Origin: Bdellovibrionota bacterium
GTDB taxonomy: Bacteria; Bdellovibrionota; Bdellovibrionia; Bdellovibrionales; JAEYZS01
Length of the DNA: 64,000 bases
Assembly: GCA_040386775.1 (NCBI GenBank)
Contig: JAZKEU010000007.1
Span: 19,459-83,458, forward strand
Direction of reading: 5' to 3'
Shown here: piece after piece, positions 3,799-55,713 of the stretch
Layout of the letters: each line of letters opens with the position of its first letter
Numbering within the stretch: the first letter of the stretch is position 1
The notes under the pieces: model-generated
Database searches by the model: none
Told to the model about the DNA's origin: nothing
The model's input: only the letters and a program-made list of their open reading frames with translations
Position numbers and translations under genes: made by a program

Positions 3799-4884
3799 AT
3801 GAAGAACAAGGATGTTTTAAATTATTTTTTGCTACTCTTATTTCTATCTGTGAATTCATTCGCAGCAGAGAGGTATGAGTTTTATACGGGTGCTCGTCAA
3901 ATGGGAATGGGCGGAGCCTCTATTGCCGTGGTGAACGACGAAACGGCATTGATTCAAAACCCCGCGGCTCTCGGAAAACTCAGAGAAAAATACCTAACAC
4001 TTGTGGACCCAGAAGTTCATATGGGTGAAACAACTGCGCAAATACTTAAAGACAAAGATTATGATTTAACCAAAACTATGGATCCTCAAGATCTTTTGGA
4101 TATTTTGAACGCAAATCCCGACAAGCACTTTCATTCTAAAGTTCAACTCTTCCCATCGTTGGTGTTCCCCAATTTTGGTATCGGGCTTCTCGCCAGTTAC
4201 AACTATGATGCGGAGGTGACGAGTGCAACAAGCGAATACAATTTGCGCTATAGAAATGATTATGGAGTTTTGCTTGGGTATAATTTCAGATTCTTTGATG
4301 GAATTATTAAGCTCGGTTTCAATGCAAAATACATTAACCGCGTCGAAATAGACGATCAGTATCCGACGACTTCCACAGGAATGGCTTGGAAAGACATCGT
4401 CAACGAAGGAACTGCAATTGGCTCTGATGTAGCATTGATGATGACGGGTCCATGGAAATATCTTCCGACGCTAGCGTTGGTATTAAAGGACGTCGGCGAT
4501 ACTAGCTACAGCCTCGGAGGCGGAATGTTTTATAGCGGACGTCCCGAGCCTACAAAAACGGATCAGACATTGGATGTGGGTTTCTCTCTTTCTCCTATAT
4601 TGGGTAAGTATTCCAGAATGCAGTTGGTGGCGGAGTACCGTGACGTGATGACGGATGATGACGATGAGGTGACTGCGCGTCGTTTGCATTATGGTCTGGA
4701 ATTTAACTTCTTCGACAAACTTTTCCTTCGCGGTGGTATGAACCAAGGCTATTGGACGGCAGGGGCGGAAGTGGCGAGTGAAAACATGCAATTTCAATTT
4801 GCAGCCTACGGAGAGGAAATAGGAACTAGGGATGCGGAAAGAGAAGATAGAAGATATATCTTCAAATTCGCGTTGAGGTTTTGA
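3799..4884 (+). CDS. outer-membrane beta-barrel protein, paralog 2 (GMG...NPA family)
   Basis: 361 aa. Signal peptide ..LFLSVNSFA/AE. Motifs ARQMGMGGASIA..IQNPAALG and GMNQGYWTAGAEV...EDRRYIFKFALRF (terminal Phe). Confidence 0.7.
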   Translation: MKNKDVLNYFLLLLFLSVNSFAAERYEFYTGARQMGMGGASIAVVNDETALIQNPAALGKLREKYLTLVDPEVHMGETTAQILKDKDYDLTKTMDPQDLLDILNANPDKHFHSKVQLFPSLVFPNFGIGLLASYNYDAEVTSATSEYNLRYRNDYGVLLGYNFRFFDGIIKLGFNAKYINRVEIDDQYPTTSTGMAWKDIVNEGTAIGSDVALMMTGPWKYLPTLALVLKDVGDTSYSLGGGMFYSGRPEPTKTDQTLDVGFSLSPILGKYSRMQLVAEYRDVMTDDDDEVTARRLHYGLEFNFFDKLFLRGGMNQGYWTAGAEVASENMQFQFAAYGEEIGTRDAEREDRRYIFKFALRF

Positions 4885-44110: not shown

Positions 44111-44766
44111 TGCTATATGTAGTTGCTCTTCCCATCGGAAATCTCGAGGATATCACATTGAGGGCTCTCAAGCTCTTGCGAGAGGCCGACGTGATCATCG
44201 GGGAAGAACGCAAAGAACTCATTCCCATGCTAAAACATTTCGAAGTAGATTTTCATTCTAAGACTTTAGAGTTCTTAAATGAGCATTCGGATAAAGAAGA
44301 CCTTCAGCATTTGAAAGGTCTTTGCAAAGATAAGAATGTCGTTCTGGTTTCAGATTGTGGAACACCGGTGTTTTGTGATCCCGGCGCTCACTTGATTTCA
44401 CTTTGCAGAAAAGAAAAGATTTCAGTGATTTCTGCACCTGGTGCTTCAAGTTTGATGACTCTTTTGAGTTTGTCTTCAGAAAAACTTTTAAAATTTCAAT
44501 TTGTTGGATTCTTGCCTCGCGAAAAAGAAGATCGCCAAAGAGAAATTGCAAAACTTAAAAATATCAAAGAAAGCTTTATCGTGATGGATACGCCTTATCG
44601 CTTAAAGGCCACCATCGATCAATTGGCTCAAGCGATGTCTGGTCGTAGAGCGCTTTTGGGTTGCGATCTCACTCAAAGCAACGAGCTTGTAATTGAAGAC
44701 ACGCTCTCCAAAATCAACGCTCAGCTTGGTGACGAAAAAAGAGAGTTTATTCTTTTAGTTTACTGA
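44110..44766 (+). CDS. rsmI: tetrapyrrole-methylase-fold SAM methyltransferase (RsmI-like 16S rRNA 2'-O-methyltransferase)
   Basis: ATG 44110 overlaps the ttcA stop. MLYVVALPIGNLEDITLRALKLLREADVIIGEE is the RsmI N-terminal pattern. Shorter than typical RsmI. Confidence 0.65.
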   Translation: MLYVVALPIGNLEDITLRALKLLREADVIIGEERKELIPMLKHFEVDFHSKTLEFLNEHSDKEDLQHLKGLCKDKNVVLVSDCGTPVFCDPGAHLISLCRKEKISVISAPGASSLMTLLSLSSEKLLKFQFVGFLPREKEDRQREIAKLKNIKESFIVMDTPYRLKATIDQLAQAMSGRRALLGCDLTQSNELVIEDTLSKINAQLGDEKREFILLVY

Positions 44767-44983
44767 TCTTATTTAAAATATCTATTTTAATTTTATCAGT
44801 AGCAGATTTATTGAATTTAGAATTCATTAAATGCTTAAAACTATTTTGTAATGTGATTATATGCTTGTAATATCTTTGACACATTTTACACAAAGCCAAG
44901 TGAAGTTTTATTTCTATTTTCTTTATAATTCCAATATCTTCAGATGAACTAATTTTTTTTGTTACTTCTCGACAAGTCATCAT
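44747..44983 (-). CDS. zf-HC2 anti-sigma factor (short, no TM)
   Basis: 78 aa. MMTCREV...LHLALCKMCQ matches the H-x3-C-x2-C anti-sigma zinc motif. ATGA overlap with the upstream ECF sigma stop. Confidence 0.65.
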   Translation of the reverse strand: MMTCREVTKKISSSEDIGIIKKIEIKLHLALCKMCQRYYKHIITLQNSFKHLMNSKFNKSATDKIKIDILNKISKLKE

Positions 44984-45564
44984 ATTACTACTGCCTTTTT
45001 TTCAATGCACTCTCGGAGTCTATTTCTGGCTCTATACAAGAGTACATTTAGGTTAGTCTCAGTAATCTCTAAAATCTTACAAATATCCTTAGAGCATTCT
45101 TCATCAATTTCTCTCATAGCAAAAGCCATACGCTGAATGTCCGGAAGCTTTTCTAAGCAATTCTCGATTTCTTCTTTAGTATTGGCTGTGAGAAGAAAAC
45201 TTTCAGGGTCAATTGGTGATTGAATCCAATGGCCAGTATTATCGAACCTATTGTTCATGTGATTATCAATTGGGTCGTTTTTATCCATTTTTTGTTTATT
45301 TCTAAATTGATCGTGAATTTTATTGTATAAAATTCCAAATAGATAAGTTTGTACTTTAGATCGAGCTTCAAACTTATGAGCAACATCGAGAAATGTTAAC
45401 CATGTGGATTGTGTACAGTCGGCTGCGGCCTCTTCATTGAGTCCCATGCCCAGGCAGCATCGATAGAGTTTGTCTGTATAAGCTTCTACCAGTTGGCTTA
45501 GAGCTAAAGGATCTTTAGCTCTAATTTTTAAAATAAAAATTTCGGTAGAAAATACATCTGACAT
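44980..45564 (-). CDS. ECF-type sigma-70 family RNA polymerase sigma factor
   Basis: 194 aa. Region 2 (..LVEAYTDKLYRCCLGM..STWLTF..) and region 4 HTH (..IQRMAFAMREIDEECSKDICKILEITETNLNVLLYRARNRLRE). Confidence 0.8.
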   Translation of the reverse strand: MSDVFSTEIFILKIRAKDPLALSQLVEAYTDKLYRCCLGMGLNEEAAADCTQSTWLTFLDVAHKFEARSKVQTYLFGILYNKIHDQFRNKQKMDKNDPIDNHMNNRFDNTGHWIQSPIDPESFLLTANTKEEIENCLEKLPDIQRMAFAMREIDEECSKDICKILEITETNLNVLLYRARNRLRECIEKKAVVI

Positions 45565-45567
45565 TAT

Positions 45568-46008
45568 TTATTTTTTTCGAAAAAGAATTTGATCTAAAGA
45601 AAAAGCTCCGGAACCCAATGTAAATACACAGAGGATAATGACGGCATACAATGCTGGACTAAGTTCTGATAATGCATAAATCGAAGTCACGTCCTCTTTA
45701 TGTGCAGTGAGAACGGCAACAACCATAATACAAAAAAGTGGTATGCAAGATAATCTCGTAAAAAAACCTACAAGAACAAAAATTCCAAAAATAACTTCAC
45801 TGAAGGCGGCCAGGGGAGCTTGAATTGTTGCTAATGGAATATTGAGAGATTTAAAGTATTCAATCGTTTTGCCTAAGTTTTGCAATTTGCCCCACCCTGC
45901 AGGGATAAATACCGTAGCGATGAAAAGGCGTGGAATTAATTTTAAAACTGGATCTAATATAAAAGATAAGCTTTGGACTTTACTATCAACTCTACTAAAA
46001 AAACCCAC
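45568..46008 (-). CDS. DoxX-family membrane protein
   Basis: 146 aa, 4 TM. ..RLFIATVFIPAGWGKL.. pattern. Lies 3 nt upstream of the sigma gene. Confidence 0.75.
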   Translation of the reverse strand: MGFFSRVDSKVQSLSFILDPVLKLIPRLFIATVFIPAGWGKLQNLGKTIEYFKSLNIPLATIQAPLAAFSEVIFGIFVLVGFFTRLSCIPLFCIMVVAVLTAHKEDVTSIYALSELSPALYAVIILCVFTLGSGAFSLDQILFRKK

Positions 46009-46049: not shown

Positions 46050-46739
46050 TTATTTTTGAATGCCGACAATCAATCCACGACTGGAGAGCATTGCGAATAT
46101 CCTAAATAATTCTTCTGGACTACTAATCCTTTCAACAATTTTAGAAATATTCAAGCCTTCAAGTATCATATCTATAATTTTATAACTATTGAGATCAATT
46201 TTATCAGTAGTCACTTCGCTATCTGCGCGATATAGAAGGTAGAGGTGATCACCCTTTATGGCCAACTGTACTGCTGGATGGAGTTCCATTTTTAAAGTTA
46301 GTATCTCTTCTTCTGAATATTGCGACAATGTGGATATATCAACAGGAATTTTGTGATGGGCGGCAAATGTAATGCATTTCTTCCATTCAAAATTTGCAGA
46401 CTCATAAAGGTCCCTTTCATTTTTAACATCAAAAAAGAGGGGGAAGCTCTGGCTGTATTCACCGAGATTATTGAATTTTGAAGGATTTTCTTTAAGGAAT
46501 TTTCTAAGCTGACTTCTTAGGTCTCCCTTAGTTTTTTTAATCAATTCAAAAGTTTCAGGAAAATCTTCTTCAAGAGACTCTTCGATGCGCAGGAAGTAAG
46601 CATTTTGATAAACTTTCAACCTTTGAAGTTTAGAGAACTGTGCTGTCTCTCTAAGAGGTAGAGAGTTTAAAAACTCAGGCTCAAAATTTTTAGTAATGGC
46701 TTCTTTAAATTGAAGCTGTAATTTTTTTAGTGAATTCAC
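46050..46739 (-). CDS. DUF2063-family protein (partner/chaperone of MNIO enzymes; BufC/HvfC-like)
   Basis: 229 aa. N-terminal ..LKKLQLQFKEAI.. pattern. Overlaps the DUF692 gene by 35 nt, the canonical DUF692-DUF2063 pairing. Confidence 0.7.
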   Translation of the reverse strand: MNSLKKLQLQFKEAITKNFEPEFLNSLPLRETAQFSKLQRLKVYQNAYFLRIEESLEEDFPETFELIKKTKGDLRSQLRKFLKENPSKFNNLGEYSQSFPLFFDVKNERDLYESANFEWKKCITFAAHHKIPVDISTLSQYSEEEILTLKMELHPAVQLAIKGDHLYLLYRADSEVTTDKIDLNSYKIIDMILEGLNISKIVERISSPEELFRIFAMLSSRGLIVGIQK

Positions 46740-47544
46740 TTTTTACTCCGTTACGAATTTCATGAGCTCTGAGAATTTCTTTTTCTAGTTCTTGCCAGTT
46801 TGGAATAGCCCCATCTCTTTCTATCATTGATGTGAAGAAACCTAAATTCTGTTCTGTCCATTGAAATAGCTTCCAAACCTCTTCACACACGGGCTGGTCA
46901 TGTGTATCTATGAGATAACCGTCTTTGACGGAATGACCAGCAAGATGAATTTGTCCAACCCTCTCTAAGGGCATGGATTTTAAAAAATCTATGGGATTAA
47001 AACTATGATTTACTGAGCTGACATATATATTGTTAATGTCTAATAAAATACCGCAGTCAGCTTTCTCAGTTAATTCTTTTATAAATTGCCATTCTGTCAT
47101 TTCTGTATTTGTATATTCAAAATAACTAGATACATTTTCTATTAAAATTCTTTGGCCAAGAAAATCTTGTATCTTTAAAATTTTATCTGAAAGATATTTC
47201 AAATTCTCTTTGGTGAAAGGAACAGGTATTAGATCATGAATATTTTCACCATCAACACCTGTCCAGCAGAGATGATCTGAAATCCAAATAGGGTCAATGC
47301 TGTTTGCAAGTTCTTTTAAGCGCTTAAGATAATTCGCATCTATTGGATCAGCAGATCCAATATTCATAGAAACTCCATGAAGAGCAATAGGCAGCCTCTC
47401 TCTTATTTTTTCTAAATTAGAAAATGCTTTTGGTTTTAAACCATTTTGCCAATTCATGTAGTTTTCAGAGACGACTTCGCCCCATTGAATGCTTTTTGGT
47501 AGTTCGTTGAGAAATTGCATTACATGAGGACTCCTGATTCCCAC
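46705..47544 (-). CDS. DUF692 / MNIO (multinuclear non-heme iron oxidative) RiPP maturase, BufB/HvfB/MbnB-like
   Basis: 279 aa from GTG 47544. ..WGEVVSENYM.., ..LHGVSMNIGS.., ..WISDHLCW.., ..ILIENVSSYF.., ..GILLDINNIYVS.., ..QIHLAGH..LIDTH.. follow the DUF692 TIM-barrel metal-ligand pattern. An upstream ATG at 47580 is in frame but separated by a TAG (see findings). Confidence 0.88.
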   Translation of the reverse strand: MGIRSPHVMQFLNELPKSIQWGEVVSENYMNWQNGLKPKAFSNLEKIRERLPIALHGVSMNIGSADPIDANYLKRLKELANSIDPIWISDHLCWTGVDGENIHDLIPVPFTKENLKYLSDKILKIQDFLGQRILIENVSSYFEYTNTEMTEWQFIKELTEKADCGILLDINNIYVSSVNHSFNPIDFLKSMPLERVGQIHLAGHSVKDGYLIDTHDQPVCEEVWKLFQWTEQNLGFFTSMIERDGAIPNWQELEKEILRAHEIRNGVKSEFTKKITASI

Positions 47545-47589
47545 GCCGATACCCTAGTTTTTGAAAAGCTTTTGTTTCATATTTACCTT

Positions 47590-47614
47590 AAATTAAAGGG
47601 GGAGTTTATCCCCC
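47590..47614 (-). terminator. intercistronic stem-loop/attenuator between precursor and MNIO gene
   Basis: Minus strand reads GGGGGA TAAAC TCCCCC followed by TTTAATTT, then AAGG and the ATG at 47580. Confidence 0.55.
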
Positions 47615-47636: not shown

Positions 47637-47876
47637 TTATTTAGCTTCTTCTTTAGCAGCGCAGTGGTCAGCACCTTTGCAATGATTTTTATCATTTTTG
47701 TTATCTTTGCCTTTACATGATGCTTTATCTTTAGCGCCGCAGCCCTCTTTACCTTTGCATGACGCTTTTTCAGCTCCAGCTTTTGGTTTTTCGTGATCAT
47801 TAGCTAAAGCTGCGCTTCCAGTTGCTAAACCAGAGATAAGAGCTGCTGCTAGTATCATTTTTGTATTGCGATTCAT
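47637..47876 (-). CDS. RiPP precursor peptide, Sec-signal + Cys/Lys/His-rich core (bufferin/HvfA-like)
   Basis: ATG 47876 preceded by GGAGGA. MNRNTKMILAAALISGLATGSAALA/NDHEKPKAGAEKASCKGKEGCGAKDKASCKGKDNKNDKNHCKGADHCAAKEEAK. Lies immediately upstream of the DUF692-DUF2063 pair. Confidence 0.75.
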   Translation of the reverse strand: MNRNTKMILAAALISGLATGSAALANDHEKPKAGAEKASCKGKEGCGAKDKASCKGKDNKNDKNHCKGADHCAAKEEAK

Positions 47877-48108
47877 TGAATCCTCCATCTTTTCGTAGCC
47901 GGAATTGGCTATCGATACATTAGGCCCATGGCACTACAGTATTAGTGTTTTAAGCTCATCCTTTATTACATAATTTTTTAGATTATATTTGTGGGATAGT
48001 TGATTCTGATTGAATCGCCTTATTTTGAGAAGTCTCGTTACTATAAAATTCATTTCTTAACATTAGCTTAAGACTTTAGGCTTGAGATTTATAAAGAGAT
48101 TTTTATTT

Positions 48109-48411
48109 TCAGCTCGATATTTTTTTACCAGATAACTTACTGTATAGCCACATAGCAAAAACACCAAAGAGCCACCAAAATGCAAATTGGATAAAGAAAG
48201 GCCAAATAGTGTTTTGGAGTTTATAGTTCAATGAAAATGGATAGAGGAGAAAGCAAGTGGCCAACACAAAACGATCAAAAATCGTTGAGAGAATATTTGT
48301 AGGCTCACTATTGGAGTAGAAAATAATATGTATAATTAGTAAAAAAAGCCAAACCCATGCAAAGATCATGGATTCAAAGACTTTCTTAAAGGTGGGCACG
48401 AGATGATACAT
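48109..48411 (-). CDS. small membrane protein, unknown function
   Basis: 100 aa with about 3 hydrophobic helices. Lies 15 nt downstream of the transglycosylase gene. Confidence 0.45.
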   Translation of the reverse strand: MYHLVPTFKKVFESMIFAWVWLFLLIIHIIFYSNSEPTNILSTIFDRFVLATCFLLYPFSLNYKLQNTIWPFFIQFAFWWLFGVFAMWLYSKLSGKKISS

Positions 48412-48426
48412 GCCTAAAATTGTATA

Positions 48427-49863
48427 TTAAATTTCTCTTGAGGCAACTGAAATAGCAGAGCCTCTCAAGGCTGCATGCCAGTGGTCGGTGAATCCTTTTT
48501 GAGAATCCTCTCCAGTTCCGCGCCCTAAGATTGCATCCACGTAGGCTACGTTACTAGTTTCCCACTTTGTCATTCTGGATTTGTTCTTTCCTACATAACC
48601 ATTGGCTCTTAATTTATGTCTGAACATAAACAAGCGAACCGTTTCCCAGTCATTATTAAGGGCGATATCAAATTTATCTTTAGCAAAGGCAATATCGCTT
48701 TTTGAAATCTGAACCCAGCCCTCTCCGCCATTGTAGGCAGCAAGAGCTTTTCTAAAATTATCTTTTTCTGTAAGGCTCATGGTTGCCCAAGAGCTTGATG
48801 TGGGTTGAGCGCCATTATTTACGATGCTGTATTTATTGAGAAGCACCTTCATTCCGCCTTCAAGATTTACCGCAGGGTTTTGTAGGCATCTTAGAGATGA
48901 ATCACTGGCCATTTGATCAATGGTTTTTCCTTTCAAAGACTGAAGCTGCTGTGGAGTGCAAGAATCGACATTGGTTACGGTCCTTGTATTCAACTGAAAT
49001 AATCCCACGCTCTTTGATCTGGATTTTTTGTCTCCAACGGCATGGCAAACACCAGCAGATTCTTGTGTTAAAATTCCTAGCATCACTTCTGCTGGAATAT
49101 TTTGTTTGGGAGCAACTTCTTTTACATAGTTAGCAAAATCATCAAACTTTAATCCAAAGCAAGTTCTTTCAAAATTTCTCGCGATGGCATCAAAGCTTCC
49201 GCCAATTCTTTTTGACCTCATCATAGCGTTTGTGTGATTTTTTACTTTTGTTAATTCACTTTGTAAGTCAGCGCGAATTCTTTTTTGTAATGAATTTTCG
49301 TCATCGCAGTCAGCAATGCAAGTTTTTGCTTCTGTCGTCTCATGGCGGCCTCCATTTGCATAAATGGAAGGTTTAGAATTTTTAATTTTAAACTCTCTTG
49401 AATCTACAAGATTTGTTTTATGAGTAGTTTCTAGCTTAAGACCACCGCGCTCTGCAATGTGTTTAAGAGCTACAAAACCGTGTTGTCCATTCATGGATTT
49501 ATTGTCAGGCATGCTCACGATTTTGACTGGAAAGAAATGTTCGTAACTAGGTCTACCTCTCTTATCAAAGCGAGTCTGTTTGATATTGCTTTGGATCATC
49601 CAATTGTTGAGAGTTTTATTGATATCAACTTTATTATCTGTCTTAATAACGAATTCATCTGGAACCTCTAGCACTGTACCTTTAGGCATAACTGTTAAAG
49701 CCTTAAGAGTTGGTGTTTCTGTAGAGTCAATGCCTTCCACTCTAAAATTTACAGCTGTATCGAGTTCTATATTGGCTGCAAATACCGAAGAGGGAAAAAT
49801 CATATTTATAATAATAAGAGCTGACAATATACTCTGAGAAAATTGTTTTAGTTTGTTTTTCAT
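48427..49863 (-). CDS. secreted protein with C-terminal SLT-type lytic transglycosylase domain
   Basis: 478 aa, signal peptide ..FPSSVFA/AN. SLT motifs ..GILTQESAG.., ..VGLFQLN.., ..AAYNGGEGW.. Confidence 0.7.
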   Translation of the reverse strand: MKNKLKQFSQSILSALIIINMIFPSSVFAANIELDTAVNFRVEGIDSTETPTLKALTVMPKGTVLEVPDEFVIKTDNKVDINKTLNNWMIQSNIKQTRFDKRGRPSYEHFFPVKIVSMPDNKSMNGQHGFVALKHIAERGGLKLETTHKTNLVDSREFKIKNSKPSIYANGGRHETTEAKTCIADCDDENSLQKRIRADLQSELTKVKNHTNAMMRSKRIGGSFDAIARNFERTCFGLKFDDFANYVKEVAPKQNIPAEVMLGILTQESAGVCHAVGDKKSRSKSVGLFQLNTRTVTNVDSCTPQQLQSLKGKTIDQMASDSSLRCLQNPAVNLEGGMKVLLNKYSIVNNGAQPTSSSWATMSLTEKDNFRKALAAYNGGEGWVQISKSDIAFAKDKFDIALNNDWETVRLFMFRHKLRANGYVGKNKSRMTKWETSNVAYVDAILGRGTGEDSQKGFTDHWHAALRGSAISVASREI

Positions 49864-52882: not shown

Positions 52883-53650
52883 ATGAATCAAATTTTAACA
52901 ATCGCTCAAAATACCTATAAAGAATTGATCAGAGATAAAGCTCTCTTTATTTTAATTTTCTTTGCCATGGGATTGCTGGCCTTAAGTATTTTACTTTCTC
53001 AGCTTTCAATTCATGAGAACTTAAGACTTACAATCGACTTTGGGTTCTCTGGAATTTTCTTAGCAATCGTTGCCATGACTTTATTTGTAGGCAGTACACT
53101 TGTATTCAGAGAGATTGATAAGAAAACAATTTTATTCTTGATGTCTTATCCTTTAAGTCGCAGCCAATTCATCATGGGCAAGTTCTTTGGATTCACAATG
53201 ATGCTTTGTACATTGATGTTGGGGTTGGGAATTGCTTTGGCCACACTTCTTTTTGTTATTCAGTGGGAGCCAACAGTATCTTTCTTGATCGCCTTCTATG
53301 GAATTTTTCTTGAGATTCTTGTACTGCTAAGTATGACACTTCTTTTTGGAGTCATTATTCGTCCAATCCTCGTAGTTGGTGCAGTTGTTGGACTATTCCT
53401 TATCGGGCATGGAATGAATGGTTTTGCGGAAATCGTTGCTCGCGGCCAGAATGAATTCTTAAAAACTTTAAGCCAAATTTTAAAATGGTCACTTCCTAAT
53501 CTAGAAAACATGAATTGGATGAATCAAGTTGTATATGCGGAGATCATTCCAGGCAGAACAATGTTATTTGCGTCGGTTTATACATTGGGTTGGGTTATTT
53601 TTTTCTTAAGCCTTGCGATCGTATTATTCAGGAGGCGTGATTTTGTTTGA
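52883..53650 (+). CDS. ABC-2-type transporter permease (PilI-like position)
   Basis: 255 aa, about 6 TM. Lies 2 nt after the ATPase gene. Confidence 0.65.
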   Translation: MNQILTIAQNTYKELIRDKALFILIFFAMGLLALSILLSQLSIHENLRLTIDFGFSGIFLAIVAMTLFVGSTLVFREIDKKTILFLMSYPLSRSQFIMGKFFGFTMMLCTLMLGLGIALATLLFVIQWEPTVSFLIAFYGIFLEILVLLSMTLLFGVIIRPILVVGAVVGLFLIGHGMNGFAEIVARGQNEFLKTLSQILKWSLPNLENMNWMNQVVYAEIIPGRTMLFASVYTLGWVIFFLSLAIVLFRRRDFV

Positions 53651-53657
53651 TGAAATC

Positions 53658-54461
53658 ATGAATCCTTACATGAATTTTTATTGGACGGGTGCCTTTTTTA
53701 TTTTAGGAGCTCTCTTCGGCAGTTTTGCTAACGTTGCCATATATAGAATTCCCAAGGAAGAAAGCGTCGTTACTACTGGCAGTCACTGTTATGGTTGCAA
53801 AAATCCTGTAAAATTTTATGACAATATTCCTATTTTATCTTGGCTGATTCTCAGAGGTAAATGTCGAAACTGTGGCGCAAAATTTTCTTTTAGATACTGC
53901 TTAGTCGAAATCATCACTGCATTTTTATTTGCAGGAACTTTTATGAAATTAGGCTGGAGCTTTTTTCTTCTAGAAGTTCTGGTTTTAATTCTAGGGCTAG
54001 TGATAGTTTCATTTATCGATATAGATCATTTTATTATTCCAGATAAAATATCATTGCCAGGAATAGTTATAGGTTTAGTAGGTGGGCTTCTCAATCCAGA
54101 GAGAACTTTTGTGGATTCACTCTTGGGAATGCTTTTGGGTGGAGGATTTCTCTGGGCCGTGGCTTATGTTTATTTTCTTTTAAAAAAAGAAGAAGGTATG
54201 GGCGGCGGCGACATCAAGCTTCTTGCTTGGATCGGTGCAATTCTTGGTTGGATGAGTATTCCATTTATAATTTTAGGTTCATCTATTCTTGGAAGTATTG
54301 TTGGACTGCTCATCATTTGGAAATCCAAAGACACTAACTCTTCAGGAATGAAAACCGTAATTCCATTCGGACCTTACATCGCATTCGCGGCAATCTTGTA
54401 CATTTTTGGCGGCGAAGCCATCGGAAAATGGTACATCAATCTTTTTATGCCAGGACTCTGA
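53658..54461 (+). CDS. pilD: prepilin peptidase / N-methyltransferase (A24 family)
   Basis: Zn-finger-like CYGCKNP...CRNCGA, catalytic Asp motifs IDIDHFIIPD and GGGDIKLLA. The start is ATG 53658 or GTG 53637. Confidence 0.88.
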   Translation: MNPYMNFYWTGAFFILGALFGSFANVAIYRIPKEESVVTTGSHCYGCKNPVKFYDNIPILSWLILRGKCRNCGAKFSFRYCLVEIITAFLFAGTFMKLGWSFFLLEVLVLILGLVIVSFIDIDHFIIPDKISLPGIVIGLVGGLLNPERTFVDSLLGMLLGGGFLWAVAYVYFLLKKEEGMGGGDIKLLAWIGAILGWMSIPFIILGSSILGSIVGLLIIWKSKDTNSSGMKTVIPFGPYIAFAAILYIFGGEAIGKWYINLFMPGL

Positions 54462-54657
54462 GTGCGTACTGAACTCTTATAATTGAGTTACCGGTACCTA
54501 AGGTCCTAAGACCTAAGTCACAAAGATGTGTGTCTAGCTGGTGCTAGACCTCCACCAATTTGACTAATAGTCCAAATCCGCGATTTAATTAAGAATGTAG
54601 TGTATCTACCGGTCAAAGAATGACCAGTACGGCAAGATGTAAGTTGGGACAACACGG

Positions 54658-55713
54658 ATGTTTTTTGATTCAAATAAAGTCATCGGACTCGACATTGGAA
54701 CGAGCTCAATAAAAATCGTTGAGTTGGATGTAGGCCAACGCAAGACGACAGTCATGGCTTTTGGCGTAGCTCCTACTCCTGCGGGCACAATTGCAGGAGG
54801 AGAAATCATTGATCCCATCACTCTTTCTCAAGCAATCAAATCTCTCATTGAAAAAATAAATACAAAAAGAAAGCACGCTAGCGTAGGAATTTGGGGAACA
54901 GCCGTGATCGTAAAGCGTGTTGGCCTTCCAAAGATGGATCTTCAGTTGCTCGATGAGCAAATTCGTTGGGAAGCAGAACAATATATTCCATTCGATATTC
55001 AGGAAATCAATTTGGAATATCATGTTTTAAATTCTTCTCAAGCAAGTGCTGACACCATGGATATTCTTCTTGTGGCTGCCAAAAAAGATTTAATCATGAA
55101 CTATTTAGAAACGGTAGAGAGTGCTGGTATTTCTTGTTCAGTTTTAGACGTAAGTAGTTTTGCTCTAGCAAATTGTTTTATGAAAAATCACCCAGAGTTC
55201 AATAATGACACGATTGCTGTTTTTGATATCGGCAGTGGCATTACAAATTTTGTTGTTGTTGAGAATGGCGAAGTTGTTTTTGCCAGAGACATTCCGATGG
55301 GTGGATTCAATTACACTTCAGACATTCAAAAAGGAATGGGCGTAAGTGTAGAAGAAGCTGAAGGATTAAAGTTGGATATCTCTCTCGGCAGACCTGCTCC
55401 AGAAGAACTTAAGACTATTGTGCAATCTTCGCATGAAAATTTCTGTGATGAACTGAATCGCAGTTTGGATTTTTTTACATCAACTTCGAATCAAGGAAAA
55501 ATCCAAAGAATTTATCTTACAGGCGGCGGCAGTTTAATGATTGGCCTTAAAGAATCATTAGCCAATCTGTCGCAGTTGCCTGTGGAAATGTTTAATCCTT
55601 TCCACAGCATTCAAGTGGATAAGAATGCGATTGCGTCAGAATATATTTCTCAAATTGCACCTCTTGCAGCAGTTGCGGTTGGATTGGGTTTACGTAAAGC
55701 GGGTGACAGATGA
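54658..55713 (+). CDS. pilM: type IV pilus assembly protein PilM (actin-like ATPase fold)
   Basis: 351 aa. ..VIGLDIGTSSIKIVEL.., ..VFDIGSGITNF... Followed by pilNOPQ. Confidence 0.88.
   Translation: MFFDSNKVIGLDIGTSSIKIVELDVGQRKTTVMAFGVAPTPAGTIAGGEIIDPITLSQAIKSLIEKINTKRKHASVGIWGTAVIVKRVGLPKMDLQLLDEQIRWEAEQYIPFDIQEINLEYHVLNSSQASADTMDILLVAAKKDLIMNYLETVESAGISCSVLDVSSFALANCFMKNHPEFNNDTIAVFDIGSGITNFVVVENGEVVFARDIPMGGFNYTSDIQKGMGVSVEEAEGLKLDISLGRPAPEELKTIVQSSHENFCDELNRSLDFFTSTSNQGKIQRIYLTGGGSLMIGLKESLANLSQLPVEMFNPFHSIQVDKNAIASEYISQIAPLAAVAVGLGLRKAGDR

Follow-up and report, generated by a model that had tools for sequence, protein, structure and literature searches.

We asked what is encoded by a short open reading frame (ORF) on the minus strand of a 64,000-nucleotide stretch of a Bdellovibrionota genome (assembly GCA_040386775.1, contig JAZKEU010000007.1; the whole stretch is here called the window), directly upstream of a gene for an enzyme of the MNIO (DUF692) family. 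The ORF (positions 47876-47637, with its ATG at 47876 and its stop codon at 47639-47637) encodes a Cys-rich peptide of 79 amino acids. Our reading, which we regard as likely, is that it is a bufA-like precursor gene of a bufferin/captophorin-type operon for a peptide that is made on ribosomes and modified after its translation (RiPP), and that its product would undergo thiooxazole formation, be exported by Sec, and chelate copper in the periplasm under the control of an ECF sigma factor. The type of system is a known one, and we expect its chemistry and role to match earlier descriptions; the branch to which this precursor belongs is known only in bulk and is uncharacterized.

The precursor gene is real, as judged from its ribosome-binding site, its ratio of nonsynonymous to synonymous substitution rates (dN/dS, 0.09 to 0.13), and its synteny in two related loci, L001 (94% identical) and L022 (63% identical). 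The ribosome-binding site, GGAGGA (47886-47881, minus strand), lies 4 nt before the ATG and is conserved in both relatives; an alternative reading of 83 amino acids, from position 47888, starts within this site. Against L001 and L022, the precursor had dN/dS values of 0.088 and 0.127, respectively, compared with 0.080 and 0.101 for the adjacent MNIO gene, bufB, and these values indicate that the precursor reading frame is under purifying selection. In L022 the synteny takes in the entire operon and its flanks (rsmI and ttcA), and the genes for the precursor, the MNIO, a DUF2063 protein, and a DoxX protein were found again in further Bdellovibrionota contigs. A small Cys-rich ORF next to the MNIO gene is conserved in relatives, a point on which an earlier note on this DNA (here called the original prediction) had made its subclass claim depend.

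The first 25 residues of the peptide (MNRNTKMILAAALISGLATGSAALA; 47802..47876, minus strand) form a predicted Sec-type signal peptide. It has recognizable n, h, and c regions, namely, a basic n-region (MNRNTK), a hydrophobic stretch of 18 to 19 residues, and A-L-A at the end (A-x-A at -3/-1); AlphaFold modeled a helix across residues 4-24, and there is no lipobox Cys. The core peptide that follows (54 amino acids; 47637..47801 on the minus strand, stop codon included) is exactly as the original prediction had quoted it after ALA/ND, with five Cys, 14 Lys (25.9%), 3 His, and no aromatic residues. Each Cys stands in a C-x-[G/A]-[K/A] context (CKGK, CGAK, CKGK, CKGA, and CAAK). The Cys are at core positions 15, 21, 29, 41, and 47 (spacings of 6, 8, 12, and 6), and the residues before them are S, G, S, H, and H. 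None of 200,000 shuffles of the core placed C-x-[GA]-[KA] at all five Cys, while the weaker pattern C-x-[GA] was found at all five in 0.08% of core shuffles. When other ORFs rich in C-x-[GA]-K were sought across the window, only the precursor ORF was found. The mature peptide has a net charge of about +4, an isoelectric point of 8.9, and a grand average of hydropathy (GRAVY) of -1.67. With an alignment of 150 sequences, AlphaFold gave residues 31-79 a predicted local distance difference test score (pLDDT) below 50 and no secondary structure; a low-confidence model of this kind is weak evidence of disorder, and it suggests that the core is intrinsically disordered.

The precursor gene is the first of six genes on the minus strand, and it is followed by genes for the MNIO, a DUF2063 partner with a RiPP recognition element (RRE), a DoxX protein, an ECF sigma factor, and a zinc-type anti-sigma factor. 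The spacer between the precursor gene and bufB is 92 nt. The readable ORF of bufB, which begins with GTG (46705..47544, minus strand; 279 amino acids), encodes an MNIO (DUF692) maturase according to both Pfam (PF05114; E = 1.4e-97) and NCBIfam (NF050167, the MNIO_BufB equivalog model; 328.7 bits, above the cutoff of 310), and its product matches a solved MNIO structure (PDB 3BWW; E = 1e-43). All of the invariant His/Asp/Glu/Asn alignment columns are retained, including E242 and D244, as is the Glu-x-Asp that holds the catalytic base. Overlapping bufB by 35 nt, bufC (46050..46739, minus strand) encodes a DUF2063 partner of the PME1 type (PF09836; 44.8 bits at residues 7-102, cutoff 27.2) with an RRE-like C-terminal domain. 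The search for BufC homologues gave three proteins, and its structure was modeled on this shallow alignment with moderate confidence (mean pLDDT, 63). In the model, the C-terminal domain consists of beta-strands and three helices, and its best structural matches were RRE proteins, TbiB1 (5v1u and 5v1v; template modeling score by target, 0.62-0.72; probability, 1.00; E = 0.02-0.12) and also 6jx3. No significant match was obtained when the BufC sequence was compared with PDB chains, and the fold search with the BufC model did not recover 3DEE, probably because the N-terminal half is poorly modeled. The fourth gene (45568..46008, minus strand) encodes a DoxX/HvfX-like membrane protein (PF07681; 76.6 bits), which scored 77 bits with the NCBIfam model of the HvfX family (NF050144), slightly below the cutoff of 80.

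The locus has the parts by which an MNIO-PME1 cluster is recognized: an MNIO of the BufB/HvfB subfamily, a DUF2063-RRE partner, and a Cys-containing precursor with a predicted Sec signal directly upstream. The secreted peptide is almost certainly the substrate of the neighboring MNIO, and the view of the original prediction that a Sec-signal precursor of a bufferin-type system lies here is borne out by the genes that adjoin it. The same coupling bears on a quite different explanation, that the peptide is secreted as a cationic effector or as an antimicrobial for predation, with a function unrelated to metal handling. Its predicted secretion, its positive charge and basic isoelectric point, the origin of the genome in a Bdellovibrionales lineage, and a lytic transglycosylase gene close by would all suit such a function, but the peptide is tied tightly to the MNIO/DUF2063/DoxX operon and has no hydrophobic or amphipathic character (low GRAVY, no aromatics, and no aliphatics beyond Ala). 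In addition, homologues of the peptide and of the operon are found in many other lineages, among them Chthoniobacterales, Melainabacteria, and one high-GC organism. We consider an effector of this kind very improbable, and nothing in the analysis supports the action in the prey periplasm that the original prediction had raised.

A published survey of the MNIO landscape defines Buf1, Buf2, Buf_EGKCG, and CxxxxC precursors and reports that hundreds of further small signal-peptide ORFs, with 1 to 18 Cys, precede MNIO genes and are unclassified (PMC12452194). Its genome table gives Bdellovibrio bacteriovorus HD100 an MNIO and a DUF2063 gene and no recognized precursor (PMC12452194). The precursor of the window had no match in Pfam at E <= 1, DUF2282 (PF10048) included, and no match to the NCBIfam BufA2 model (NF050166; cutoff, 60 bits) even at E <= 10, either as the full peptide or as the core. 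As a control, the canonical BufA2 of locus L004 scored 87.4 bits in the same scan. The core holds no K-C dipeptide, by which the E-G-K-C-G (Lys-Cys) peptides are recognized, and it has C-x5-C only, never the C-x4-C of the CxxxxC family (PMC12452194). The precursor lies outside the curated precursor models of NCBIfam and Pfam. On this and on the difference from the EGKCG repeat the original prediction was right; its phrase "6/12-Cys DUF2282" was mistaken, in that the 6/12-Cys cores are Buf2 and DUF2282 is Buf1, with 4 Cys (PMC12452194).

The precursor does fall within the operational definition of the Cys-Lys group of captophorins, which takes in MNIO-PME1 ORFs that contain two or more Cys, have a Cys content of at least 2.5%, and have "CK" within their top repeated Cys 5-mer (PMC13097082). 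Cys makes up 5 of its 79 residues (6.3%), and SCKGK and ASCKG occur twice each. Likenesses to this group are the Cys-rich ORF in an MNIO-PME1 cluster, the repeated "CK" 5-mer, and an enzyme without the Phe that is found in Lys-Cys enzymes (PMC13097082). The survey in which the group was defined has 1172 repeat-containing biosynthetic gene clusters (BGCs) in it (Table S2 of that study) and counts 17 BGCs from Bdellovibrionota (PMC13097082). The group is, however, an operational bin based on RefSeq, its only characterized member is BufA2, a folded six-Cys peptide, and tandem-unit peptides of the form [S/G]-C-x-G-K-x-G-C are not described individually in the survey (PMC13097082).

A word-indexed search found only five relatives of the precursor; when 1.84 billion representatives were searched exhaustively with a profile, 352 cluster representatives were recovered at E <= 1e-3. 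The best 150 of these 352 were all small, Lys-rich proteins with a signal peptide and 2 to 13 Cys. In these 150, the consensus was [G/S]-C-[K/S/N]-G-K, the family unit was [S/G]-C-x-G-K-x-G-C (C-x5-C), and a Cys-to-Cys spacing of 6 accounted for 458 of the 761 successive gaps. Many members of the family are clean tandem repeats; for instance, P0003 consists of three copies of A-E-K-A-S-C-K-G-K-E-G-C-K-A-A-D. When compared by hhalign with the three-unit repeat group, the window core aligned over 49 columns (probability, 98.4%; E = 1e-14). Because the whole core aligns to three-unit peptides, we read it as three degenerate [E-K-A-S-C-K-G-K-x-G-C] units, the second without its second Cys. The likeness among the repeat peptides may partly be convergence on a low-complexity solution.

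An MNIO gene was directly downstream in all six of the sampled members that had a readable downstream gene (P0002, P0003, P0008, P0012, P0022, and P0043), and a distant lineage (L029-L031) repeats the whole arrangement, including the ECF sigma factor and a zinc-type anti-sigma (ZAS-type) protein. In public records, proteins of the family are unnamed or called "hypothetical protein," and a literature search did not find the repeat-unit sequences in published papers. The suggestion of a new precursor subclass in the original prediction accordingly held in part: the peptide is outside the curated models, but it belongs to a repeat family of 352 representatives that has already been surveyed in bulk (PMC13097082, PMC12452194).

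Some candidate classifiers were tried and rejected. A weak match to TIGR02953 ("pentapeptide MXKDX repeat"), at 14 bits against a cutoff of 41, reflects the signal peptide and the K/D-rich composition. Pfam DUF7640 gave weak matches in 37 of the 150 family members; canonical BufA2 also falls below its cutoff (17.7 versus 28.1), so DUF7640 is not a model of BufA2 and we drew no classification from it. The residue after the catalytic Asp of the enzyme varies (D, G, A, or E) in both BufA2-type and repeat-type enzymes. It separates the Lys-Cys enzymes, which have Phe (ERDF in HvfB), from all others, and the window enzyme has Gly (ERDG). Because the residue is variable, the window enzyme cannot be placed within the Cys-Lys group by this means.

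The evidence on BufA2 is more mixed, and it bears on whether the precursor is simply a diverged member of the BufA2 (Buf_6/12Cys) family, that is, a small folded domain with a disulfide between its terminal Cys and modified central Cys. With BufA2 of bufferin 2 from Caulobacter vibrioides, whose maturases are BufB2-BufC2, the precursor shares a Sec signal in place of a leader, the order precursor-MNIO-DUF2063, and the combination of C-K-G contexts with C-x5-C spacing that is a hallmark of BufA2. The C-terminal HCAAKEEAK resembles the Cys-VI context of BufA2 (DCAAAKAKAK). Weak matches to a BufA2 hidden Markov model (HMM) were found in 93 of the 150 family members (best E = 4.8e-16), which implies that the repeat family shades into BufA2 and is not unrelated to it. 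The BufB of the window is also closest to BufA2-associated MNIOs (49-54% identity). In a neighbor-joining (NJ) tree, it grouped with the enzymes of L002 and L006 (bootstrap, 77%), both paired with canonical six-Cys BufA2, L006 being from an uncultured Bdellovibrionales genome, and it stood apart from the enzymes that accompany those repeat peptides to which the window core is most similar. This grouping also links the window enzyme to the Cys-Lys type.

Nevertheless, the NCBIfam BufA2 model did not match the window peptide and likewise did not match its relatives P0001 and P0002, and an HMM that we built from ten canonical six-Cys sequences gave the precursor 20.5 bits (unfiltered), compared with 95-127 bits for the training members. 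The hhalign match of the core to canonical BufA2 (probability, 90.5%) was local, covering a 19-column C-K-G segment only, and the full-length profile match was to the repeat group and not to BufA2. The core has five Cys, not six, and their spacings do not follow the BufA2 frame (C-x5-C-x5-C-x6-C-x5-C-x12-C); a Cys-I/Cys-VI disulfide scaffold is not apparent in it, and it lacks the G-F-x-E segment (and the wider G-F/Y-x-E). Whereas modeling of Buf1 and Buf2 is reported to give small folded domains (PMC11626156), the window core is predicted to be without structure, has a repeat architecture, and varies in Cys number among close relatives. The operons differ as well: that of the window carries genes for DoxX and for a pair of ECF sigma and ZAS proteins, and in the landscape survey sigma/anti-sigma genes were present in clusters of Buf1 and absent from those of Buf2 (PMC12452194). 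We regard a diverged BufA2 as unlikely and retain the assignment of the precursor to the tandem-unit family.

Within this assignment, the number of Cys is not a signature. In the L022 orthologue there are seven Cys, each of them within C-x-[G/A]-K, and where Bdellovibrionota operons have an MNIO 58-65% identical to that of the window, their precursors carry 6, 4, and 4 Cys, arranged quite differently. With 5, 7, 6, 4, and 4 Cys in the closest relatives of the window peptide, the five-Cys C-x-[G/A]-[K/A] pattern that the original prediction had offered as possibly defining did not survive the comparison. What is conserved is the signal peptide, a composition rich in Lys, Asp, Glu, and Gly, the Cys context, and the C-x5-C pairs; the closest clade also keeps an H-C-x4-H-C element near the C terminus. 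Taken together, the maturase tree and the variable precursors indicate that the enzyme is conserved and its substrate is plastic. In one of these Bdellovibrionota operons, that of L032, the precursor (2610-2909) combines Lys-Cys units (KCGGDKAKCGG) with a Cys-Lys element (HCKGADHC), and the operon has a Y1 transposase in place of DoxX and the sigma gene.

The Lys-Cys peptides (Buf_EGKCG/oxazolin, fontiphorin, and gonophorin) resemble the window peptide in having a signal peptide, low-complexity repeats, and many modifiable Cys, in their MNIO-PME1-DoxX operon, and in that stochastic multi-site copper binding is proposed for them. Their motif, in contrast, is E-G-K-C-G, with Lys before Cys and a C-x4-C spacing, and FonBC did not process C-K substrates (PMC13097082). 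Bufferin 1 (BufA1; DUF2282, PF10048) is similar in its enzyme subfamily, its Sec export, and, in Caulobacter, its sigma/anti-sigma control; it differs in being a folded four-Cys domain, whereas the window peptide has no DUF2282 match. The anti-sigma factor of Buf1 clusters is the membrane protein NrsF, unlike the small soluble ZAS-type protein of the window.

In these relatives, 5-thiooxazoles, 2N2S copper binding, and induction by copper have been described (PMC11626156, PMC13097082, bioRxiv 10.64898/2025.12.15.693703). Buf1 has two thiooxazoles that form a 2N2S site with 1:1 stoichiometry, Buf2 has its four central C-K Cys modified and its outer two in a disulfide, and the stochastic multi-site binding mentioned above was proposed for the E-G-K-C-G peptides (same three sources). 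By analogy with Buf1/Buf2, fontiphorin, and oxazolin, BufB and BufC of the window would oxidize Cys of the core to 5-thiooxazoles in the cytoplasm, with a mass change of -4.03 Da for each Cys. Among the predicted sites, the three in C-K-G are the most secure, and there is less certainty about C-G-A and the C-terminal C-A-A. Sec would then export the modified peptide, with cleavage after ALA, and in the periplasm the mature cationic peptide would chelate copper. Thiooxazoles that lie six residues apart may pair to form 2N2S sites, in which case the peptide, with its two C-x5-C pairs, would have two copper sites, and the His before each of the last two Cys (HCKGADHC) would possibly assist a copper site.

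A wider reading would set the tandem-unit peptides apart as an intrinsically disordered sub-class of their own among thiooxazole metallophores, in which a C-x5-C pair would be one 2N2S copper site, the number of units would evolve freely, also from one close species to another, while the maturase is conserved, and several lineages would have their own ECF/soluble zinc-type anti-sigma switch and a recognizable promoter (TGTAAK-N17-CACT in Bdellovibrionota). We put this forward tentatively, as a possibility that we hold to be less than probable. If it is true, such a peptide would be a periplasmic copper sponge of tunable capacity tied to a cytoplasmic thiol/metal sensor, unlike a folded bufferin of fixed stoichiometry.

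The start of bufB raises the question of whether the system is still active in the source genome. What remains of the ancestral start (47554..47580, minus strand) has an ATG at 47580 and an in-frame TAG at codon 9 (47556-47554), so that the window encodes MKQKLFKN*GIGVGIR; in place of the TAG, L001 and L022 carry TAT (Tyr). The TAG falls within the motif (D/N)(L/Y)G(V/I)GVG(L/I)R; of 113 close homologues scored, 112 keep the Gly at -4 of this motif and every one keeps the Gly at -2. Because it lies inside this N-terminal motif, the readable start is limited to the GTG at 47544 or a later ATG. A restart at the GTG drops the near-invariant G-I-G of the motif, and the database gene call for bufB in the source genome is shortened to 271 amino acids (P0152). 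The TAG could be explained by a nonsense mutation of recent date, by an assembly error, or by re-initiation that is tolerated.

Read as a sign of decay, the TAG, which replaces a conserved Tyr/Leu codon, would abolish maturation; the peptide would then be an unmodified periplasmic metal binder that uses plain Cys, His, and Lys, or the operon would be in the course of being lost. Yet purifying selection is strong on the precursor and on the remainder of bufB (dN/dS, 0.08-0.09 against L001), neither has further lesions, and all other genes of the operon are intact. A single-base assembly error and re-initiation at the GTG, four codons downstream, are equally possible explanations of the codon. 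We judge a decaying or inactive system to be quite unlikely and continue with the reading of the locus as a bufferin/captophorin-type operon.

The last two genes of the operon appear to provide its regulation. The gene for the ECF sigma factor (44980..45564, minus strand; TIGR02937, 87.6 bits, cutoff 42.9; Sigma70_r2 and r4_2 domains) starts 3 nt past doxX, an arrangement repeated in L022, L033, L034, and L029. It overlaps by 4 nt the gene for a protein of 78 amino acids (44747..44983, minus strand), a small soluble zinc-type (ZAS-like) anti-sigma factor with an H-x3-C-x2-C motif (HLALCKMC), an N-terminal Cys, and no hydrophobic or membrane segment. This protein scored 38.4 bits with NCBIfam NF052368 (below the cutoff of 50), matched RsrA weakly, and has orthologues in L022, L034, and L029. 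In L029, which is from a distant high-GC lineage with a repeat-type precursor, the ZAS-type protein follows the sigma gene at 4142-4510.

A candidate ECF-type promoter with -35/-10-like elements, TGTAAT-N17-CACT (47944..47970, minus strand), lies 68 nt upstream of the start codon of the precursor. The pattern TGTAAK-N17-CACT has a single match in the window, with 0.15 expected. Among 34 loci, it was seen only in L001 (1135-1161), L022 (375-401), L033 (2639-2665), and L034 (2668-2694), upstream of the precursor and with an operon that encodes an ECF sigma factor. An extra copy in L033 (5459-5485) lies within the 3' end of the sigma gene. In Caulobacter, the sigmaF site is GTAACC-N16-CGAA (PMC3511200) and controls buf1 and buf2 (PMC11626156); the candidate promoter has a similar geometry and a GTAA half-site. 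From the motif and its distribution we infer a promoter that would be read by the operon's own ECF sigma factor, such that inactivation of the anti-sigma factor would let the sigma factor switch the operon on. A scan for sigma-70 promoters gave no excess of matches over shuffles.

The 5' untranslated region (UTR) of the precursor contains a 17-mer, CAATTCCGGCTACGAAA (47891..47907, minus strand), that is identical in the window, L001, and L022, with variable flanking bases. The intergenic regions, including the 17-mer, matched no known RNA in Rfam, and a consensus fold of the 5' UTR had no covariation and no supported hairpin. Between the precursor and bufB there is a G+C-rich, terminator-like hairpin (GGGGGA-TAAAC-TCCCCC, followed by TTTAATTT; 47590..47614, minus strand), and L001 and L022 have hairpins at the same position with differing stem sequences, each followed by a T-run. 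It is probably an attenuator that sets the ratio of precursor to enzyme: through partial termination, the precursor transcript would exceed the enzyme transcript.

Several points weigh against our reading of the locus. Modification, export, metal binding, and all else beyond the gene and its operon are argued by analogy. Copper-homeostasis genes were not found among the ten neighboring ORFs scanned (neighbors included SLT, NUDIX, DUF6973, BrkB, prepilin peptidase, and PilM proteins), and no characterized member of the repeat family was found in the literature. With a TAG in the conserved GxGVGxR motif, the maturase may be impaired in the source genome. The BufB tree was made crudely, by NJ, the disorder that AlphaFold suggests was obtained with a heterogeneous alignment and structure may be underestimated in it, and the proposed promoter is a motif alone.

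Bufferin/captophorin clusters are among the most numerous bacterial RiPP clusters, and the characterized ones are folded Buf1/Buf2 and the E-G-K-C-G peptides only. The locus would be a compact example of a third architecture, that of disordered Cys-Lys tandem units. Annotation models miss tandem-unit precursors, and as a result such genes are listed as hypothetical or are not called, of which the table entry for B. bacteriovorus HD100 is an example; with a family model of such peptides, several hundred to thousands of precursors would be recovered. The peptides also make a natural series for the choice of Cys by the MNIO and for the relation of site number to copper capacity, and the self-contained ECF/anti-sigma module with its candidate promoter is a testable regulatory circuit.

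Upstream of the operon, a 100-amino-acid hydrophobic ORF with no Pfam match (48109-48411, minus strand; containing FIQFAFWWLFGVFAMWLY) lies between the lytic transglycosylase gene and the precursor. A related ORF or a coding remnant of it is found upstream of the precursor in L001, L022, and L032, and the contig of P0155 has an ORF at this position that is similar as judged by size alone. The neighboring regions at 48427-49863 and 53613-55713 encode an SLT-domain lytic transglycosylase (478 amino acids), a prepilin peptidase, and PilM, which fits a Bdellovibrionales-like genome (GC content, 38.9%).

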